This document shows positions 15,776 to 58,582 of a stretch of 64,000 bases of DNA, piece by piece. Within the stretch, counting starts at the first letter, position 1, and the number at the start of each line of letters is the position of its first letter. Under the pieces are notes generated by a model. The model searched no databases, was not told where the DNA came from, and worked only from the letters and a program-made list of their open reading frames with translations. The position numbers and the translations under genes are program-made. Source of the DNA: Acidobacteriota bacterium (lineage in GTDB: Bacteria > Acidobacteriota > Vicinamibacteria > Vicinamibacterales > SCN-69-37); contig JADJUS010000004.1 in assembly GCA_016716905.1 (NCBI GenBank), forward strand, positions 1,419,603-1,483,602. The letters run 5' to 3'.

Positions 15776-17059
15776 ATGACTTCTTATCGCGCGAGTTGGG
15801 TACTGCCGATTAGCGGCCCGCCCCTGCGAGATGCCTGGGTGTCGGTCAGCGACGGCCTTGTGACCGAGGTCGGGACCGGCCGCGCGCCGAGTCCTGTCGT
15901 TGAATTGGGCGACGTCGCCCTGTTGCCAGGACTGGTCAACGCGCACACACACCTCGAATTGAGCTGGATGGCTGGGCTCGTGCCGCCGGCGGGGGCCATG
16001 GACGAGTGGATCAAGACGCTCCTGAGCGTGAGGCGCGCCGGGCCTGCCGGGGGAGACGAAACGGTCGTGACCGCCATGACGCGCGCCGTGGGCGACATCC
16101 TCGACACCGGCACGGCCCTGGTGGGCGACATCTCGAATTCGCTGATGTCGGTGCCCGTCTTCGCGGCGCGGGAACTGGCCTGCGTCGTCTTTCACGAGAT
16201 CCTCGGCTTCAACCCCGCGGACCCGCAGGCAATGGTCCGCGACGCCCAAGAAAGACGTCGGGTGTCATTAAAACGACCTCTGAGGTCGTTTCAGGATAGC
16301 GACTCGCTGAAACGACCTCAGAGGTCGTTTTCAGACACACCCGACGCCTTTTCTGCGGTCGTCGGGCACGCGCCCTACTCGACGGCGCCCGCGCTGTTCG
16401 CAGAAATCGCCGCGCAGCATCAGGGGCCGGCGCCCCTCTCCGTGCACATCGCCGAATCGGCCGAAGAAGTGGAGTTTCTTCACACCGGCCAGGGACCGAT
16501 GCGCACGCTGCTGGAAACACTCGGGGTGTGGACCGGTGCATGGCAGGTGCCACGGTGCGGCCCGCTGGAGTTCCTCAAGCGGCTGGGGTACCTCAAGCCA
16601 GGCACCTTGCTGGTCCACGGCGTCCACTTGACCGTTCGGGAACTCGAGCAGGCCCGCGACGCCGAGGCCGTCATCGTGACGTGCCCGAGAAGCAACACGT
16701 GGGTCGGAGGCGGTGTGCCGCCCATCGCCCGGTTTTATGGTGCGGGCGTGCCCGTGGCCATCGGCACCGACAGCCTCGCGTCCGCCGAGACCCTCAACAT
16801 GTTCGACGAATTGGCAGCGCTCCGACGGCTCGCGCCGGAAGTGGATGCCGCGCAACTGCTCGACAGTGCCACCAGGGTGGGAGCCGAGGCGCTCGGGTTT
16901 GGTCAGCACTACGGCACCATCAGCCCTGGACGTCAGGCCCAGCTGGTGTCCGTCGCGTTACCGGCCGGCGTCCGGGGCCGTCCTGAGGATGTGGAAGAAT
17001 ACTTGGTGAGTGGAGTGTCAGCCGCTGACGTCTCACGGCTGAACGTTCCGTCCCACTAA
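15776..17059 (+). CDS. Amidohydrolase superfamily deaminase (chlorohydrolase/aminodeoxyfutalosine-deaminase-like), carrying an in-frame palindromic-element insert
   Basis: LPGLVNAHTHLELS (HxH), SVHIAES, LLVHGVHL and IGTDS metal-ligand motifs. I chose the ATG at 15776 (MTSYRASWVLPI); the track start at 15521 overlaps mqnC. Confidence 0.7.
   Translation: MTSYRASWVLPISGPPLRDAWVSVSDGLVTEVGTGRAPSPVVELGDVALLPGLVNAHTHLELSWMAGLVPPAGAMDEWIKTLLSVRRAGPAGGDETVVTAMTRAVGDILDTGTALVGDISNSLMSVPVFAARELACVVFHEILGFNPADPQAMVRDAQERRRVSLKRPLRSFQDSDSLKRPQRSFSDTPDAFSAVVGHAPYSTAPALFAEIAAQHQGPAPLSVHIAESAEEVEFLHTGQGPMRTLLETLGVWTGAWQVPRCGPLEFLKRLGYLKPGTLLVHGVHLTVRELEQARDAEAVIVTCPRSNTWVGGGVPPIARFYGAGVPVAIGTDSLASAETLNMFDELAALRRLAPEVDAAQLLDSATRVGAEALGFGQHYGTISPGRQAQLVSVALPAGVRGRPEDVEEYLVSGVSAADVSRLNVPSH
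16248..16354. repeat. Composite nested palindromic element (outer GACGTCGGGTGTC-type arms, inner AAAACGACCTCTGAGGTCGTTTCAG arms) inside a CDS
   Basis: Inner perfect 25-nt arms at 16270-16294 and 16307-16331 with a 12-nt spacer. Outer imperfect arms at 16248-16266 and 16334-16354. Confidence 0.85.
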
Positions 17060-34387: not shown

Positions 34388-34526
34388 AGTCCGGGGTCCG
34401 CAGGTCCGGCAGGTCCCAAGGTTCGCGGAGCCGCGCCGTTTGGCGCGGGGCTTCATGTGGAGACAAGATGGCGCGCAGCGCCCACCGCGAACCCACGCAC
34501 CTATCGGACCTGCGGACCCACGGACC
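34388..34526. repeat. Imperfect large inverted repeat whose arms are GGTCCGN heptamer runs
   Basis: The left arm ggtccgcaggtccggcaggtcccaaggttcgcgg and the right arm ccgcgaacccacgcacctatcggacctgcggacccacggaccc share an exact GGTCCGCAGGTCCG/CGGACCTGCGGACC segment. Inner hairpin CCGCGCC-gttt-GGCGCGG at 34431-34448. It fills the gap between the convergent permease and pntB. Confidence 0.75.
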
Positions 34527-40561: not shown

Positions 40562-41476
40562 ATGCTGCTGTTTTCTTCTCCCCGATTTTCCGAACATTCA
40601 CCGCCCCCCGGCCACCCCGAACGAATCGAGCGCGGGCAGGTATTCGAGGCGGTTGCTGAGTCGTTTCGCGCCGGTGGCGGGGCGATCGGGCCGTCGCGGA
40701 TGGCCACGCGCGAGGAACTCGCACGAATCCACACAGCCGCGTACCTCGACACGATCGAGTCGTTGGCCGGACGCGCGGCCACGCTTGATGCCGACACGTT
40801 TACCAGTCCGGAGTCGTGGGACGTCGCGCGTCTGGCTGCCGGCGCGGCCATAGACGCGGCGCGCCACGCCTGGGCGACTGGCGAGGCCGCGATGGCCCTG
40901 GTGCGCCCTCCGGGGCACCACGCCGAACCGGACAAGGCGATGGGCTTTTGTCTCTACAGCAATATCGCGATTGCGGCTGCGGCCCTCCGGGCCGACGGGG
41001 TCGAACGCGTCGCGATCGTGGACTTTGATGTCCACCACGGAAACGGCACCCAGGCCGCCTTCTACGACGACCCGAATGTGTTCTTCGCGTCCAGTCATCA
41101 ATACCCCTACTGGCCCGGCAGCGGAGCCGCGACCGAACGGGGCACGGGTGCAGGAGAGGGCACCACGCTGAACCTGCCTCTGCGCGCTGGTGCGACGGAT
41201 GCGGACGTGCTGAGGGGCTATGAGCAGCACCTCCTGCCGTCGCTGCAGGCCTTCTCGCCTCAGGTGCTGTTGATCTCGGCCGGTTACGATGCGCACCAGT
41301 TCGACCCGCTCGGCGGCCTCCGGATGACCACCGAGGGTTTCCGCTCACTCGTCCGGATACTTGCCAACGTCGGCCGCCGCACCTGCGGTGGCCGGATCAT
41401 GGCCATCACCGAAGGCGGCTACCACCTCGACTCCCTCCGCGCGGGGGTCGAAGTCACGATCGACGAATTGAAGTAA
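40562..41476 (+). CDS. Histone deacetylase-family (class II HDAC/AcuC-like) deacetylase
   Basis: RPPGHHAEPDKAMGFCLYSN, DFDVHHGNGTQ, and the YPYWPGSG and EGGY motifs. Confidence 0.85.
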   Translation: MLLFSSPRFSEHSPPPGHPERIERGQVFEAVAESFRAGGGAIGPSRMATREELARIHTAAYLDTIESLAGRAATLDADTFTSPESWDVARLAAGAAIDAARHAWATGEAAMALVRPPGHHAEPDKAMGFCLYSNIAIAAAALRADGVERVAIVDFDVHHGNGTQAAFYDDPNVFFASSHQYPYWPGSGAATERGTGAGEGTTLNLPLRAGATDADVLRGYEQHLLPSLQAFSPQVLLISAGYDAHQFDPLGGLRMTTEGFRSLVRILANVGRRTCGGRIMAITEGGYHLDSLRAGVEVTIDELK

Positions 41477-41612
41477 GGGGACGGGTGTCGATCTGTGGAA
41501 AATTCCGGAACCGGAAAAGACGTCGGGTATCTTTTTCGTTGCCGGTGAAGCGAAAAAGACACCCGACGTCTTTTCCGATGCGCGAGTTTTCCACAGATCG
41601 ACACCCGTCCCC
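41477..41612. repeat. 136-nt nested palindromic element (outer GGGGACGGGTGTCGATCTGTGGAAAA arms, inner GGAAAAGACGTCGGGT arms)
   Basis: Outer 26-nt perfect arms at 41477-41502 and 41587-41612. Inner 16-nt perfect arms at 41513-41528 and 41561-41576. It starts 1 nt after the HDAC stop and ends 14 nt before the leuS GTG. Confidence 0.85.
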
Positions 41613-41626
41613 CTTAAAATATCGGT

Positions 41627-44736: not shown

Positions 44737-45786
44737 GTGCCCAATCTTGACGTGGCCGCCCTTCGTAAACATCTGGCGGCCCGGACGCTGAGCCGCGTGT
44801 ACGTCTTCCTCGGCGAAGACGTGAAACTTGTGGATGCGATGGTGGATGCCGTGGAGGCCACCGTGGACGTCGCTGACCGGCCATTTGCCGTAGACCGCGT
44901 GTATGCCGGCGAAAACGGCGGCGCGCCGGTGGACATCGCGGCGTCCTGCCGCAGCCTGCCCATGCTCGGCGATCGCCGCCTCGTCATTGTCATGCGTGCC
45001 GAACGGTTGTTGAAGCCCAAGCGAGCCGGCAAGGCGACCGACGAGGAAGAAGAGGTGGAAGACACGCCCGCGGACGGGGAGAGCGCAGCCACAGACCTCA
45101 CACCGCTGGAAGACTACGTGGCCGCTCCCTCGGAGTTTGCGACGCTGGTGTTTGTGGCGACTGAAATCGATCGGACGCGCCGGTTCACCAAGAAACTGAT
45201 CGAGAAGGCGCAGGTGGTGGAGTTCAAGGGGATCCGCGCCGAGGCACGATCCGGTCCCGCTGGAGCGAATGCCGCGATGGCGCAGGCGCGGACGTTTGTG
45301 CAGGACGAGATGACACGCGAGGGCCGGACCATGGAACCGGCTGCCGTGGCAATGCTCACCAGGCGCTCGGGCGCTGACATCTCCAAGTTGAGAGGCGACA
45401 TCGAGCGGCTGCTGCTCTTTGTGGCCGGGCGGAAGGCCATCACCGTGGCTGACGTGGAGAGTGTGGCGTCCGACGGCGCCACGGTTCAGGACGACTGGGC
45501 CGTGACCAACGCCATCAGCGCCGGTGATGCGGCGCTGGGGTTGAGGGAGTTGGCGCTGCGTTTCGAGCGCGGCGATTCGCCTCACGGCATCGTGGGGCAG
45601 TTGCGGTGGTGGGTGTCGAACCAGTTGGCGTCTGGCGCGCCCGATCGCGTCAAGCCTGCCCTGGATGCGCTGTTGCGCACCGACCTGGCGCTCAAAAGCT
45701 CAGGAGGGGAGGACCAGGTGCTGCTTGAGCGCCTGGTGGTGGAACTGACCGGGCGACCGCTTACGCGGTCGCGGTCTTCTTGGTGA
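44737..45786 (+). CDS. holA: DNA polymerase III delta subunit HolA
   Basis: The VYVFLGEDVKLVD N-terminus and the PMLGDRRLVIV and C-terminal GQLRWW motifs are delta-like. Synteny after lptE. GTG start. The 3' end overlaps the convergent rpsT by 26 nt. Confidence 0.75.
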   Translation: MPNLDVAALRKHLAARTLSRVYVFLGEDVKLVDAMVDAVEATVDVADRPFAVDRVYAGENGGAPVDIAASCRSLPMLGDRRLVIVMRAERLLKPKRAGKATDEEEEVEDTPADGESAATDLTPLEDYVAAPSEFATLVFVATEIDRTRRFTKKLIEKAQVVEFKGIRAEARSGPAGANAAMAQARTFVQDEMTREGRTMEPAAVAMLTRRSGADISKLRGDIERLLLFVAGRKAITVADVESVASDGATVQDDWAVTNAISAGDAALGLRELALRFERGDSPHGIVGQLRWWVSNQLASGAPDRVKPALDALLRTDLALKSSGGEDQVLLERLVVELTGRPLTRSRSSW

Positions 45787-46110: not shown

Positions 46111-46539
46111 CTAGCCCCACCCGGACCCCTCGCCGCCCTCCTTGGCCTGGCGTAGGCGCCGTTTCTCGCGTTTTCCAGGGGCCACCTCCGGGCCGCGGGT
46201 GCGCTGGGGGCCGGCCAGCCGGGCCATTTCCAGCATGGCCTTCACCTGGGGTGAGGGCTCGGGTGTGACGTCTTCGTAGAGCGCCCTGGCCAGAGCCTTG
46301 GCCATGTGGTGGCTGGCCAGGCCCAGCACGATCACCCGCTGGCGCACTCCGCGGGGCCGCGAAACCTCCACCACGTCGCCGAGCCTGAGCGGCCGCTGCG
46401 CTTTTGCCGGCTGGCCGTTGACCTCCACCTTGCCGCCCTTGCAGGCCCGTTGCGCTTCCGACCGCGTCTTGCACAAACACGCCACGTCCAGCCAGACATC
46501 GAGGCGGCAGGGGGTGCTGATTTCGGGATCGGGGCTCAT
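46111..46539 (-). CDS. S4-domain RNA-binding protein (Hsp15/HslR-like)
   Basis: RLDVWLDVACLCKTRSEAQRACKGGKVEVNGQPAK S4 motif with a basic C-terminal tail. Confidence 0.7.
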   Translation of the reverse strand: MSPDPEISTPCRLDVWLDVACLCKTRSEAQRACKGGKVEVNGQPAKAQRPLRLGDVVEVSRPRGVRQRVIVLGLASHHMAKALARALYEDVTPEPSPQVKAMLEMARLAGPQRTRGPEVAPGKREKRRLRQAKEGGEGSGWG

Positions 46540-46541
46540 AA

Positions 46542-46625
46542 GGGGACGGGTGTCTACCTGTGGAAAACTCCCGGAACAACGTTACCCGAGTTCCCGGAGT
46601 TTTCCACAGGTAGACACCCGTCCCC
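46542..46625. repeat. 84-nt hairpin element, variant arm GGGGACGGGTGTCTACCTGTGGAAAA
   Basis: About a 35-bp stem with one mismatch and a 14-nt loop. The arms differ from the other copies by GAT>TAC on the left and the complementary ATC>GTA on the right. Confidence 0.85.
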
Positions 46626-46651
46626 CTCTCATTCGAGATCCAGGAAGAGAG

Positions 46652-46722
46652 GGGGACGGGTGTCGATCTGTGGAAAACTCGCCGGTTGAAAACGAGTTTC
46701 CCACAGATCGACACCCGTCCCC
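46652..46722. repeat. 71-nt hairpin element, arm GGGGACGGGTGTCGATCTGTGGAAAA
   Basis: 30-bp stem with one mismatch and an 11-nt loop (ccggttgaaaa). It ends 15 nt before the M14 peptidase ATG. Confidence 0.85.
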
Positions 46723-46737
46723 TTTATCATTTGGGTC

Positions 46738-49536
46738 ATGGCCAAGAGACTGCTGCTCGGACTGCTCCTGATCGCAAGTTCTTATGGCGCCACCCCGCAG
46801 GCCCAGACGCGACCGGCGTCAGGAATCACATCTCCGGCGGCCGAGTTTGGCCACGCGTTTGGCGACGACTACTTCCTGGCCACCTACCGGCAGATCGAGG
46901 CGTATTGGCGGAAGCTCGACCGCGAGTCGGACCGGATGGTTCTTGAGGACATCGGCAAGACGGCCGAGGGCCGCTCGCAACTGATGGCCATTGTCACCTC
47001 ACCGGCCAATCACAAGAACCTCGCGCGCTACAAAGAGATCTCGCGTCGCCTGGCGTTGGCCGAAAACCTGACCGATGAACAGGCGCGCGCCCTCGCGAAG
47101 GAAGGCAAGGCCGTGGTCTGGATTGACGGCGGCCTGCACGCCACTGAGACACTCGGCGCACAGCAACTGGGCGAGATGGTCTACCAGATGGTCAGCCGCA
47201 ATGACGAGGAAACGCTGCGGATACTGGACGACGTGATCATTTTGTTTGTGCATGCGAATCCGGACGGCAACGATCTTGTGGCCGACTGGTACATGCGGGC
47301 ATCCGATCCCAACGAGCGCAGCCTGGCGAATCTGCCGCGGCTCTACCAGAAGTACATCGGACACGACAACAACCGCGACTTCTTCGCGTCCACGCAACCC
47401 GAAACCGAGAACATGAACCGCGTGCTCTATCACGAGTGGTTCCCGCAGATTCTCTACAACCACCATCAGAGCGGGCCGGCGGGCACCATTCTGTGGTCAC
47501 CGCCGCTGCGCGATCCGTTCAACTACAACCAGGATCCGCTGCTGGTGCTCGGCCTGCAGACGGTCGGGCTTGCGCTGCACACGCGCCTGGCCGCTGAAGG
47601 CAAGCCGGGCGCGACCATGCGATCGGGTGGTCCGTACGACGGCTGGTGGAACGGCGGCATCCGCAACACCGCCGCGTTCCACAACACCATTGCGATCCTC
47701 ACGGAGATGATCGGCAGCCCCACGCCGATGCGCGTGCCGCTCGTGATGGAGCGGCAGCTGCCCACCAGTGACCTGACGTTTCCCGTGGCGCCGCAGGAAT
47801 GGAGATTCCGACAGTCGATCGACTATTCGGTAGCCTGTAACCGCGGCGTGCTCGACAGCGCATCACGGATGAAGGAAAACTATTTGTACAACCGCTACGT
47901 GATGGGGAAAAACTCGATCCAGCGCGGCAGTGAGGATTCGTGGACGCCGCGGCCTCACCGGTATGCGGATGTCGCGCGCGAATTCGCCTCGAGTCCGGCC
48001 GGGCGAGCGGCTGGTGCCGGCAGAGGTGGCGGACGCGGCGGCGCCTCGCCCGAGGCTGATGCAGCGCTCTGGGCCGCGCTCCGCAAGCCCGAATACCGCG
48101 ACCCGCGCGGTTACATCCTGCCCTCGAACCAGCCGGACTTTCCGACGGCCGTCGAGTTCATCAATGCGCTGCGCGAGGTCGGCATCAAAGTGCATCGCGC
48201 GACATCGTCGTTCACGGTGGCCGGCAAAACGTATCCGCCAGGTTCCCTCGTCGTCATGACCAACCAGGCGTTTCGGCCGCACGTGATCGACATGTTCGAG
48301 CCCCAGGATCATCCCGACAATATTCCGTCTCCGGGCGCGCCGCCCACGCCGCCGTATGACAGCGCAGGATGGACGCTGGCGTACCAGACGGGCATCGAAT
48401 TCGATCGCATCCTCGACGGATTCACCGGGCCGTTTGAAGAAGTCAAAGACTGGAACATCGCGTTTCTCAAGGGGACGATGCCGGCTTCCCTGGCCGGCGG
48501 ATACCTGCTGAGCCGCGAGGTGCTTAATTCATTTGCCGCCGTGAATCAGTTGACCGCCGGAGGCGCCAGTGGCGTGTCAGTCACGACGGGGCCAGTGACG
48601 GTGGACGGCAAAGTGTTTCCTGCAGGCACGTTCCATGTGGCAGAGAGCCAGCGCACGAGATTGGAAGCAGTCCTCGGGCCCCTTGGGATGCACGCGGTGC
48701 CCTTCGGAATGAAGATGAACGTTCTGGCGCCAGTGCGCGCCCCACGCGTCGGACTGTGGGATCAATACGGCGGTTCGATGCCTGCCGGATGGACGCGCTG
48801 GATTCTGGAGCAGTTCACGTTCGACTTCACTCGAGTGTTCGCACCTCGGCTCGACGCGGGCAATCTCAACGCCGACTTCGACGTGCTGGTGTTTGTGTCC
48901 GGCGCCATTCCGGGAACCGGTGCCGGCGGAGGGCGCGCAGGCGGGGCGGGCCGCGGCGGTGCCGCAGGGCCGGCGCCAAACATCCCGGCAGAATACCGCG
49001 ATCAAGTCGGAAGCATCTCGGCCCGCACCATTGCGCAGCTGCGCCAGTTTGTCGAAAACGGCGGTCGCATTGTGGCGATTGGCAGTTCGGCGACCAACCT
49101 CGCGCAACATCTCGGCCTTCCCATTGAAAACCACCTGACCGAGCCTGGAAGCGCGCCCGGCGCGCCGCCGCAAGCGCTGCCACGCACCAAGTACTACGTG
49201 CCCGGATCGGTGCTGGGAGCGCGAGTTGACACGACGAGTCCGCTGGCCGCCGGCATGAAGGAGCGAACCGACTTCTTCTTCGACAACAGTCCTGTCTGGA
49301 GACTGGCTCCCGACGCCGCCTCAAAGGGCGTGATGCCCGTCGCGTGGTTCGATTCGCCGGCGCCCCTGCGCAGCGGCTGGGCATGGGGCCAGGACTATCT
49401 CGACAAGGGCGTCATCGCGATAGACGCGCAGGTGGGCAAGGGGCGTGTGTTCCTCTTTGGCCCCGAAATCCTGATGCGCGCGCAGCCCCGTGGTACGTTC
49501 AAGTTCCTCTTCAACGCGATCTATTGGGGGCAGTGA
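46738..49536 (+). CDS. M14-family zinc carboxypeptidase-like protein with a large C-terminal extension
   Basis: Signal peptide MAKRLLLGLLLIASSYG. HxxE zinc motif in VWIDGGLHATETLG, and ANPDGN. 932 aa. Confidence 0.75.
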   Translation: MAKRLLLGLLLIASSYGATPQAQTRPASGITSPAAEFGHAFGDDYFLATYRQIEAYWRKLDRESDRMVLEDIGKTAEGRSQLMAIVTSPANHKNLARYKEISRRLALAENLTDEQARALAKEGKAVVWIDGGLHATETLGAQQLGEMVYQMVSRNDEETLRILDDVIILFVHANPDGNDLVADWYMRASDPNERSLANLPRLYQKYIGHDNNRDFFASTQPETENMNRVLYHEWFPQILYNHHQSGPAGTILWSPPLRDPFNYNQDPLLVLGLQTVGLALHTRLAAEGKPGATMRSGGPYDGWWNGGIRNTAAFHNTIAILTEMIGSPTPMRVPLVMERQLPTSDLTFPVAPQEWRFRQSIDYSVACNRGVLDSASRMKENYLYNRYVMGKNSIQRGSEDSWTPRPHRYADVAREFASSPAGRAAGAGRGGGRGGASPEADAALWAALRKPEYRDPRGYILPSNQPDFPTAVEFINALREVGIKVHRATSSFTVAGKTYPPGSLVVMTNQAFRPHVIDMFEPQDHPDNIPSPGAPPTPPYDSAGWTLAYQTGIEFDRILDGFTGPFEEVKDWNIAFLKGTMPASLAGGYLLSREVLNSFAAVNQLTAGGASGVSVTTGPVTVDGKVFPAGTFHVAESQRTRLEAVLGPLGMHAVPFGMKMNVLAPVRAPRVGLWDQYGGSMPAGWTRWILEQFTFDFTRVFAPRLDAGNLNADFDVLVFVSGAIPGTGAGGGRAGGAGRGGAAGPAPNIPAEYRDQVGSISARTIAQLRQFVENGGRIVAIGSSATNLAQHLGLPIENHLTEPGSAPGAPPQALPRTKYYVPGSVLGARVDTTSPLAAGMKERTDFFFDNSPVWRLAPDAASKGVMPVAWFDSPAPLRSGWAWGQDYLDKGVIAIDAQVGKGRVFLFGPEILMRAQPRGTFKFLFNAIYWGQ

Positions 49537-50483: not shown

Positions 50484-51125
50484 TTGTCGCTTCCGGAAGT
50501 CATCCTGTTTTCCACTGCGATGCTCGCCATCGTCAATCCCCTGGGATCGGCGGTGCTGTTTGCGGCGCTGGCAGGGAAATTTGATCCGGGCATTCAGCGG
50601 CGCATGGCGAATTCGAGCGCGCTGGCGGTCCTCATCATCCTGCTGGTCTGCGCGTGGCTCGGCAACTCCATCCTCGGCTTGATGGGGTTGACGACGCCGA
50701 TGTTGCAGGCGGCGGGCGGCATCATCCTGCTCAACTACGGCCTGCGAATGGTGACGGTGGAGGATGTGAAACTGACGCAGAGCGAACGCGACTCTGCCGG
50801 CGACATCAGCGAGGAACACTGGAAGGCGCTGGCCGTGGTACCGCTGGCGATTCCTGGAACCGTGGGCGCCGGCACGATCACCACGGTCATCATTCAGGCG
50901 AGCACGTTTGACAGTGCGCGCGACCTGCTGGTGATCTCTGGCGTGTCCCTGGGCATTGCGCTGTTGATGTGGATCACGTTCCACTCGGCCGGTCCCATCG
51001 CGCGCAGACTCGGCCCGATCGGAATGAACATCATCTCGCGCGTGATGGGCATTCTGGTGACCGCCACCGCCTTCGGCTTGCTGGGCAAGGGGGTCGGCGG
51101 CCTGTTGCCCGGTCTGGCAAAATAG
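50484..51125 (+). CDS. MarC family (UPF0056) integral membrane protein
   Basis: LAIVNPLGSAVLFAAL N-terminal motif and the PLAIPGTVGAGTITT motif typical of MarC. TTG at 50484 is proposed as the start; the track ATG at 50280 overlaps the upstream gene in another frame. Confidence 0.7.
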   Translation: MSLPEVILFSTAMLAIVNPLGSAVLFAALAGKFDPGIQRRMANSSALAVLIILLVCAWLGNSILGLMGLTTPMLQAAGGIILLNYGLRMVTVEDVKLTQSERDSAGDISEEHWKALAVVPLAIPGTVGAGTITTVIIQASTFDSARDLLVISGVSLGIALLMWITFHSAGPIARRLGPIGMNIISRVMGILVTATAFGLLGKGVGGLLPGLAK

Positions 51126-51126
51126 C

Positions 51127-51246
51127 GAGAACGACCTCAGTGCCAAAACGACCTCTGACTGGCAAAACGACCTCTGAGGTAATTACCGACGACAATTGCC
51201 GGTAATTACCTCAGAGGTCGTTTTGGTTTCAGAGGTCGTTTTGTTT
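51127..51246. repeat. Nested palindromic structure made of five AACGACCTC(T/A)G-core copies
   Basis: Perfect 26-nt arms CAAAACGACCTCTGAGGTAATTACCG (51163-51188) and CGGTAATTACCTCAGAGGTCGTTTTG (51200-51225) with an 11-nt spacer. Further half-copies lie outside on both sides. Confidence 0.85.
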
Positions 51247-51330
51247 TGAGCCATTTTCGCCATTTTGATGTACCCAACGGCCCACCGCCGGCGGGTGTCT
51301 GGGTATCGTCGTCGGGGAGGTGTGCCTGGG

Positions 51331-58203: not shown

Positions 58204-58582
58204 CTGCAATAGCGCTATTGAGGATGGGAGCGCCTGGAAATTGAGGGTTGAGGATTGAGCGATTGAGGATCGGGATGTGACGGATTGCAGATGTGGGAGT
58301 GAGGATGGCAATTGTGGGGTTGGGGGATTGAGGAATTGTCGGATTGACGATGGTGCGATTTCGGGATGGACCGTGTCTGAAGTGTGGAGAGTGCGTGGGG
58401 AGCCCGCGTCCCCATCTCGCGATCGCGCCATCGGCAATCTAACGATCCCGCCATCCCTCAATCTAACGATCCCGCCATCCGCAATCTAACGATCCCGCCA
58501 TCCCTCAATTGCCGATCGACAATCAGCCATCAGCCGTCCGTCCCATCCCGATCCTCAATCGCTCAATCCGCAATCCTCAATG
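58204..58582. repeat. About 380-bp imperfect inverted structure of ATTGAGG/CCTCAAT heptamer runs, with an internal 23-24-bp x3 tandem repeat
   Basis: The left arm is rich in ATTGAGG units and the right arm in CCTCAAT/CAATC units. Central hairpin TGGGGA-gcccgcg-TCCCCA at 58396-58414. Tandem CAATCTAACGATCCCGCCATCC(CT/G) x3 at 58435-58505. 14-bp palindrome CAATAGCGCTATTG at 58207-58220. Confidence 0.8.

Follow-up and report, generated by a model that had tools for sequence, protein, structure and literature searches.

Paired changes in the two arms of a DNA palindrome family from Vicinamibacterales point to a REPIN- or MITE-like repeat

A stretch of 64,000 nucleotides from an Acidobacteriota bacterium of the order Vicinamibacterales (assembly GCA_016716905.1, contig JADJUS010000004.1, positions 1,419,603 to 1,483,602), called the window throughout, carries three copies of one hairpin family. 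Two of them, hairpins A and B, lie side by side in the divergent region between a gene for an S4-domain protein (46111-46539, minus strand), whose ATG directly abuts A, and an M14 peptidase gene (46738-49536, plus strand), whose ATG lies 13 nt past B. An earlier inspection of the letters without database searches, referred to here as the sequence-only reading, had proposed both the pair of related hairpins and the two flanking genes; closer sequence reading with a repeat finder bore out the former and Pfam the latter. Hairpin A (46540-46627; no strand is assigned to this or any other hairpin, or to the spacer) has arms of 32 nt each (46540-46571 and 46596-46627) that enclose an extra stem, CGGAAC/GTTCC(C) (46572-46577 with 46590-46595), and a 12-nt loop (46578-46589). 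Its left arm reads TAC at 46555-46557, where the family majority has GAT, and its right arm the matching GTA at 46610-46612, where the majority has ATC (both read on the plus strand). Hairpin B (46650-46724) is of the majority type, with GAT at 46665-46667 and ATC at 46707-46709. Its arms (46650-46681 and 46693-46724) are 97% complementary, with a single A>G difference in the right arm (GTGGGAAA), and flank an 11-nt loop (46682-46692). The third copy, also GAT/ATC, occupies 41475-41614 between a histone-deacetylase-family (HDAC) gene and leuS. It shares its first two bases with the TAA stop of the HDAC gene upstream (41474-41476), and its 76-nt interior holds a nested hairpin of a different family, family 3 (GGAAAAGACGTCGGGTRTCTTTTTCG, 41512-41577).

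All three copies are near-perfect palindromes with the arm A-R-GGGGACGGGTGTC-GAT-CTGTGGAAAACTC, and six matches to the arm pattern GGGACGGGTGTCNNNCTGTGGAAA lie in the window vs 0.00 expected. Predicted folding energies for the region of A and B are -140.8 kcal/mol (z = -14.2) for RNA and -84.1 kcal/mol (z = -14.9) for DNA. The hairpins proposed by the sequence-only reading stand, with conserved ends that extend 2 nt further out (A-R-GGGG ... CCCC-Y-T); the spacer between A and B is therefore 22 nt long (46628-46649). The inverted repeat that a 26-nt spacer was thought to form in its own right dissolves on inspection: apart from about 4-5 nt, it arises from pairing between the right arm of A and the left arm of B. 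Among the loop sizes given earlier, the 11 nt of B hold, and the figures of 14 and 84 nt are replaced by a 12-nt loop atop an extra 5-6-bp stem in A and by the 76-nt interior of the third copy. The GAT>TAC change in A is indeed matched by ATC>GTA in the other arm, but it is a double rather than a triple compensated change, since the central A/T is unchanged and each arm carries two substitutions (G>T and T>C).

The two neighbours share more than their arms. Flank plus left arm of A and of B form a direct repeat of 49 nt (D1 in the output of the repeat finder), 80% identical at a spacing of 110 nt, and the spacer 46628-46649, which is homologous to the sequence that contains the S4 start codon in a related locus, L005 (L-numbers are labels of the loci and contigs compared), is also a direct repeat of 46522-46539. 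Because of these two repeats, A and its flank have the look of a tandem duplication of B and its flank that would have diverged later.

Further copies were collected in two scans. The first used the arm as query against a genome collection, with the triplet left free, and gave 71 loci, almost all from about ten metagenome-assembled genomes (MAGs) of Vicinamibacterales/Acidobacteria; an arm profile detected about 170 arms and 68 paired hairpins in this set. The second was anchored on the inner stem only (CTGTGGAAAACTC, 10-40 nt, GAGTTTTCCACAG) and gave at least 120 loci in soil metagenomes, which brings both scans together to at least about 190 loci. In the first scan 19 positions of one arm were prescribed, in the second 13 positions of both arms; the positions left free (4-15 and 24-29) and the partner arm therefore carry our conclusions. 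Altogether the copies are near-perfect palindromes of 75-140 bp with 30-nt arms, A-R-GGGG(A/T)C-N6-(T/C)C-GAT-CTGTGGAAAACTC. The elements end in A-R-GGGG(A/T)C ... G(T/A)CCCC-Y-T, beyond which only a slight A/T richness is seen; a flank motif outside the arms, CCCCGATC, was discarded as a product of orthologous loci, as it is gone in the de-duplicated set. The arm pattern also matched three non-acidobacterial MAGs. Two of these matches (L026 and L067, Nitrospira) are single, diverged, unpaired arms, and the third (L034, Planctomycetota) is a perfect arm with which a contig of 4 kb ends, a position that suggests a mis-binned acidobacterial contig.

The relationship between the arms was analyzed in 130 non-redundant hairpins from both scans. 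The central triplet is equal in both arms in 115 of them, 88 with GAT and 27 with one of 16 other triplets (GAC, TAC, GGT, TCC, AAT, GAA, ACC, TCT, ACG, CAG, ACT, AGT, TCG, CAC, AAG and GAG). The remaining 15 hairpins are asymmetric, and nearly all of them have GAT opposite a one-step neighbour. The outer stem, which neither scan anchored, behaves in the same way: it falls into at least 15 subtypes (for example ACGGGTGTC, TCGTACCTC, ACGGGTCTC and ACGGGGGTC), and the subtype matches between the arms in 121/130 hairpins. Subtypes are constant across separate copies of one locus (11/11) and genome-specific even at orthologous sites, such as GGGAGTC in L183 and GGGGTCGTACC in L145. The covariation analysis used an alignment of 117 distinct arm pairs in which TTTT stood in for every loop to keep the register exact. 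Stem cells are paired in 96.8% of cases vs 86.9% in shuffles, changes on both sides occur at 20 of the 32 stem pairs, cells with a double change number 320 vs 98 in shuffles, and the covariation score is 0.256 vs 0.080; none of 500 shuffles reaches any observed value. When the partner arm is slid by 1-3 columns, all pairing and covariation values collapse. Cells are not independent events, because many loci are mutually orthologous, and the distinct pair types and distinct triplets are the safer measure. The sequence-only reading had staked its case on arm differences remaining correlated as more copies were compared, and both the 115/130 matching triplets and the shuffles agree with it.

The commonest variant is GAC/GTC, and hairpins with GAT in one arm and GAC in the other also occur. 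The interior that by eye comes closest to that of A belongs to a GAC/GAC hairpin at the same locus (L040, 2176-2263), with 21/24 positions alike. The simplest path to TAC/GTA would lead from GAT to GAC to TAC in two successive paired changes, each through a one-arm intermediate. An identical copy of A is present in L101, whose flanks are 98% identical to those of the window, and TAC is an inherited allele common to the two rather than an event private to the window.

The interiors of the family studied here, family 1, are modular and consist of a loop of 10-12 nt, an extra stem of 5-7 bp with a loop of 12-14 nt, or a nested hairpin of family 2 (GAAAACGACCTCTGAGGT...) or family 3 (GGAAAAGACGTCGGGTGTCTTTTTC). 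Beyond the window, family 3 is nested in family-1 hairpins in L010, L029, L030, L031, L054, L060 and L070, and family 2 in L003, L011, L018, L032, L039, L040, L042, L043 and L056. Both families are also found in the window outside family-1 hairpins. Family-2 hairpins (AAAACGACCTCTGAGGT...) stand at 16270-16331 and 51163-51225, with extra units across 51120-51250; they have perfect arms of 25-26 nt and loops of 11-12 nt, and their basic unit, AAAACGACCTC-T-GAGGTCGTTTT, forms a small palindrome by itself, which makes this family similar to repetitive extragenic palindromes (REPs). Family 3 (AAAGACGTCGGGTGTC ... GACACCCGACGTCTTT) encloses a family-2 hairpin at 16252-16350 and sits in the family-1 hairpin at 41512-41577. 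The three families nest in each other in varying orders, in the manner of a mosaic.

The presence and the structure of the elements vary between related sites. At the orthologous S4/M14 site, each of the seven related genomes compared carries B; A is limited to the window, L101, L031 and L040 and is absent in L005, L047 and L183. Over 31 orthologous pairs, identity is 95% in the arms, 78% in the flanks and 47% in the interiors, and the class of interior at one site (short, extra-stem or nested) varies between genomes; the arms are constrained or homogenised and the loops are free to change. L145 has an element at a site that is empty in the window (45757-45778), L005, L031 and L040, and a related site is filled in L104 vs empty in L167. 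Loops evolve faster than their surroundings at constant length. For instance, the loop of B (46682-46692) differs from that of L101 at 4/11 bases between flanks that are 97.8% identical, and the 13-14-nt loops of L106 and L147 are wholly different between flanks of 95% identity. Conversion by donor copies was considered as the source of new loops and rejected, as loops are not common to non-orthologous sites in the sample.

The closest pairs of contigs differ by entire alleles. The M14 gene is identical over 2799/2799 nt in L199 (GCA_963853495.1) and L200, and B is identical in both. At A, L200 has a different hairpin with the centre G-GAT-T and the interior GGGGAC..., which is identical at 83/85 positions to A of L031 and is accompanied by a spacer that matches better when inverted (19/24 vs 14/24); L199 has only a solo arm and a duplicated spacer. 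Contigs that share a nucleotide-identical M14 gene thus show three structures at the position of A: the TAC hairpin (window, 46540-46649), the G-GAT-T hairpin (L200, 1-110) and the solo arm (L199, 1000-1200). At the HDAC/leuS site, three contigs with an identical HDAC protein carry the hairpin of the window, and L196 has the same arms with a family-2 left interior and an assembly gap. Since near-identical contigs differ in this way, whole hairpins or interiors appear to be exchanged as units on the time scale of strains. Copies also duplicate locally in tandem. Extra arms in local arrays (+ + - or + - -) share the variant triplet of their neighbours, with ACC three times in L014, GAC three times in L025 and TCT four times in L033.

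The elements occupy short intergenic gaps and commonly abut or overlap a stop or start codon. According to gene calls made for this analysis from GC content at third codon positions, 61 of 107 elements lie between tandem, 25 between convergent and 21 between divergent genes. About 40 of the 111 element ends that face the 3' end of a gene overlap its stop, which reads T|AA or T|AG ahead of GGGG, and start codons cluster 0-15 nt from an element end, too close for a Shine-Dalgarno sequence to fit between. These data do not tell a choice of target from selection as the cause of the codon overlap. In L199 (639-1193; contig CAWKWW010000007.1) the public call for the S4 gene, 184 aa long, runs through both hairpins, which are stop-free in its reading frame, and in L145 an in-frame GTG within a DnaA-box word could be the S4 start. 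An exact-sequence look-up of the S4 protein gave no match because public gene calls run through the hairpins. The true N-terminus of the protein seems to differ between strains, and its position is uncertain.

The sequence-only reading had argued that a paired structure, in DNA or RNA, is propagated or selected, or that copying is templated by the hairpin, and the data uphold this and narrow it to readings at the level of DNA. An RNA hairpin could be selected within mRNAs as a 3' stabiliser, terminator, attenuator or modulator of translation near stop and start codons, and compensatory changes would then keep its fold. The very stable predicted RNA fold agrees with such a role, as do the 61/107 elements that lie between co-directional genes and so within transcription units, the roughly one third of gene-facing ends that overlap a stop and the starts 0-15 nt away; in Escherichia coli, REPs near stop codons affect translation. 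The substitutions tell a different story. Variable pairs swap Watson-Crick types with G·U-type states almost absent (pair 12/57 is UA in 65 cases, CG in 33, GC in 17, AU in 2 and GU in 0), most of them lack any G·U state, and double-sided changes far exceed G·U states. The mismatches in the 130 hairpins are 21 G·U, 17 A·C and 24 others. On the sense strand of 28 elements between co-directional genes, 7 G·U vs 1 A·C suggested the strand bias expected of RNA, but in the larger oriented set of 53 elements the count is 9 vs 6, which is no convincing bias. The fold is equal on both strands, and every type of gene context harbours elements, divergent promoter regions like that of S4/M14 among them. 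Rfam 15 gave no match at the gathering score, only sub-threshold, generic matches resembling miRNA precursors on both strands, and neither window locus has an intrinsic terminator (GC-rich stem plus T-run); a promoter consensus scan of the same loci found none. Selection on RNA is thus unlikely. Given the scarcity of G·U states, the absence of a strand bias and of Rfam, terminator and promoter matches, and the range of gene contexts, together with the shared triplets of array arms and the exchange of whole hairpins between contigs with identical genes, we conclude that the conserved object is probably a DNA palindrome, foldable equally on both strands.

We favour the explanation, at a probability of roughly 0.6, that both hairpins are copies of a palindromic repeat at the level of DNA, non-coding and abundant in Vicinamibacterales and related Acidobacteriota, that works like an element of the REPIN or miniature inverted-repeat transposable element (MITE) type. 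The whole palindrome would be the unit that is copied and kept. Its single-stranded hairpin may be the substrate of propagation, which would keep the arms complementary, and the probable agent is an HUH tyrosine transposase of the RAYT/TIRYT type, which would leave no target duplication. Alternatively or additionally, a change in one arm might be copied to the other by intrastrand template switching or repair, that is, by quasipalindrome correction. TAC/GTA would have arisen stepwise by way of GAC and may now travel as a whole-hairpin allele. The family is REP/REPIN/MITE-like in class; compensated arms are already known in that class, and the family itself is what is new, abundant and acidobacterial. 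Because the elements lack two traits that define classical REPs, self-palindromic units and a tag, and one trait of DDE-type MITEs, a target duplication, the family can be described as apparently REPIN-like in its working rather than as a proven REPIN member.

The nearest precedent is the REPIN/RAYT system of Pseudomonas and Enterobacteria (Bertels & Rainey 2011, PMC3116915), in which two inverted conserved units and a less conserved spacer form one long hairpin, compensatory changes on either side are common, tandem clusters include the flanks and no target is duplicated. The elements described here share these features, are likewise extragenic and of high copy number (three interspersed, extragenic copies in the 64 kb of the window), and also come in lineage-specific, vertically inherited sequence types. 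They differ in that their arms are not small palindromes, have no GTAG tag and carry a DnaA-box consensus, that their interiors are modular with nested hairpin families, and that no RAYT was found near any copy. A second relative is the long terminal inverted repeats (TIRs) that flank RAYT-like TIRYT genes (Di Nocera et al. 2013, PMC3733652). Those are long inverted repeats unlike REPs, occur as dimers and clusters, and in many cases share the end GGGGWSAS, comparable to GGGG(A/T)C here; one TIRYT group is specific to Acidobacteria, and a TIR family is described in Koribacter. The match covers 6 of the 8 motif positions, however, no TIRYT gene flanked by our hairpin arms was seen, and the described cases are in Terriglobia rather than Vicinamibacteria. 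Bacterial interspersed mosaic elements (BIMEs) of E. coli resemble the family as intergenic mosaics of palindromic units and linkers with species-specific units at conserved positions. They have another sequence and are arrays of small REPs, whereas the elements here form one long hairpin. Some BIME classes hold a site for a host protein, IHF; the putative host site here is for DnaA and lies in the stem rather than in a linker.

Target-site duplications were absent at all offsets of 0-4 and lengths of 2-9 around 132 hairpins. Searches for a transposase, by tblastn and phmmer, took as queries TnpA_REP of E. coli (checked against 4ER8) and nine RAYT/TIRYT sequences from the literature; they covered the DNA that flanks the copies, and a RAYT gene is present in a single copy per genome. 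A profile search of a large protein database did not single out Vicinamibacterales homologues, the best 120 of its 8000 matches all being close to the Terriglobia queries. In a limited sample, five arm pairs lie 350-2500 nt apart and enclose ordinary genes, and no transposase lies between any arm pair. L133 has an ordinary IS200-type TnpA gene (746-1210) with end hairpins of its own and, about 300 nt downstream, a symmetric group of four DnaA-box-like words (1510-1620), both unrelated to the hairpin family. A RAYT-like gene next to its own REP array, as a further precedent, is aca645 of Acidobacterium capsulatum (L193, CP001472.1): directly upstream of it, REP-like palindromes, CCCACATCTCGCAGAGATGTGGG, are repeated four times in tandem at a period of 72 nt (1248-1491).

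Several observations weigh against a repeat of the REPIN or MITE type. In the 1.3 Mb of DNA flanking the copies, no transposase adjoins any of them, the only find being the unrelated IS200 TnpA of L133. Single arms are not self-complementary (z = 0.0, -1.2, 0.4 and -0.7 vs shuffles), and the arms have no GTAG tag; GACG/CGTC is present in the ACGGG subtypes and absent from the GGGGTCGTACC subtype. No insertion or excision event was directly observed, and the pairs of filled and empty sites, about 74% identical, are too diverged to define a target or the boundaries of an insertion. L200 starts inside hairpin A, so that its distinct allele may be an assembly chimera at the repeat. The arms are far better conserved than neighbouring coding DNA, which would also fit a host function, and the anchored arm positions look invariant partly by construction.

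The only unusual feature of the family appears to be a putative DnaA-binding motif in its arms. The DnaA-box consensus is TTWTNCACA, and the inner stem TTTTCCACA matches it perfectly. All five consensus matches in the window, where 1.0 is expected, lie in the three hairpins: at 46559-46567 (minus strand, TTTTCCACA in the left arm of A), 46600-46608 (plus), 46669-46677 (minus), 41494-41502 (minus) and 41587-41595 (plus). Five of the six window arms hold the consensus, and the sixth, in B, reads TTTCCCACA. The hairpins might accordingly be host-recruited DnaA-binding elements, the box being selected for binding and the complementarity for a double-stranded box within the hairpin; the hundreds of duplex copies would titrate or position DnaA, and a single-stranded hairpin would recruit DnaA, DnaB and primase as at an A-site. 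There is a biochemical precedent, since the ABC primosome acts on a defined substrate of this kind, a hairpin of single-stranded DNA whose stem carries a DnaA box (Masai & Arai; PMC6127211). That A-site, however, is a single plasmid or phage-vector site with demonstrated activity, whereas the present case is a resemblance of sequence in chromosomal repeats.

Several findings favour a role in DnaA binding. The oriC next to dnaA in L135 and L140 is an AT-rich stretch with 9-10 boxes, CCTGTGGAAAAC / GTTTTCCACAGG, which use the same word and flanks as the hairpin. Two hairpins keep the box although it is reversed within the arm, namely L145 (5949-6066, orthologous to the S4/M14 site) and L161 (3277-3380). 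Box position 22 shows 15 one-arm A>G changes and never a compensated G-C pair, and the 95% identity of arms vs 78% of flanks points the same way. Nevertheless, both scans were anchored on part of the box, so that conservation there is not independently measured, and the free positions within it (24-25) are no better conserved than those outside (26-28). The two other nested hairpin families lack the box, and the motif was noticed after the fact. We regard such a recruitment by the host as improbable, and the DnaA-box motif itself as a lead and not a result.

A broader version, in which genome-wide palindromes with two putative DnaA boxes each are used at the level of DNA by the cell or the element, beyond being selfish repeats, is a long shot. 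Under it, and with equally slender chances, an extruded single-stranded hairpin would load helicase and primase, as a restart or second-strand site of the ABC-primosome type, and the hundreds of duplex copies would act as a buffer for free DnaA. Arms more conserved than neighbouring genes would be accounted for by selection for the box, and the strict Watson-Crick matching would follow from a need to keep the box double-stranded within the hairpin. The origins were recovered by the scan because their central box pair equals the inner stem of the hairpin. They lie at 1560-1820 in L135, where recF adjoins too, at about 1620-2000 in L140 and at 620-930 in L138, which shows the same box arrangement, and their boxes form two converging arrays. 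A recurrent locus, TAGTAGGGGCTGTGGGAACTGTGGAAAACTC-19 nt-GAGTTTTCCACAGTTTCCATAGCCC, was found in L073, L076, L096, L102, L108, L119, L165 and L180; in L073, L096 and L165 it is near an open reading frame about 30% identical to the AAA+ part of DnaA, and it may serve another taxon as an origin or as a site under DnaA control.

Miniature derivatives of a DDE transposon, either of the Tn3 family (TIME/MIC elements, with 38-bp ends, a GGGG start and GGAAAA) or of another insertion sequence, would have matching arms because both are transposase-binding ends, and the GGGG(A/T)C start, the long terminal inverted repeats (30-nt arms) and the high copy number fit; they are very improbable, however, as Tn3-family elements make 5-bp target duplications and the 132 hairpins have none, there is no inner TAAG motif, no transposase gene lies between any arm pair of a limited sample, and the identity of binding sites leaves the joint change of free positions into 16 triplets unexplained. 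The lack of target duplications led us to reject the Tn3-end assignment; the subtype GGGGTCTGACCCCGATCTGTGGAAAACTC (L113 and L126) bears an apparent likeness to the Tn3 end, GGGGTCTGACGCTCAGTGGAACGAAAACTC. Integron attC sites were rejected as well, since the elements end in A-R-GGGG...CCCC-Y-T and not in RYYYAAC ... GTTRRRY and occur in tandem, convergent and divergent contexts of housekeeping genes, and a CRISPR reading was considered and rejected.

Two further inverted repeats were noted in the window. One, at 58240-58581, has two 87-nt arms that are 76% complementary, lie 168 nt apart and consist of short, degenerate tandem units that resemble GATTGAGG on one side and CCTCAATC on the other. 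The second, at 34394-34519, has 35-nt arms, 83% complementary and 56 nt apart, and its sequence is unrelated to the three hairpin families.

A repeat of the REPIN or MITE type as proposed here has practical as well as biological consequences. Its hairpins break assemblies, with contigs L017, L021, L062 and L200 ending inside one, and mislead gene callers, as in the public assembly that runs the S4 gene through both hairpins. Hypervariable intergenic alleles between identical flanking genes are usable for strain typing. The family is also a clean set of natural data on what keeps long DNA palindromes perfect, with many independent paired changes, one-arm intermediates, fast loops of fixed length and arms conserved above the level of coding DNA. 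If the DnaA boxes in the arms should prove functional, dispersed repeats would be tied to the control or priming of replication in a major and poorly studied phylum of soil bacteria.

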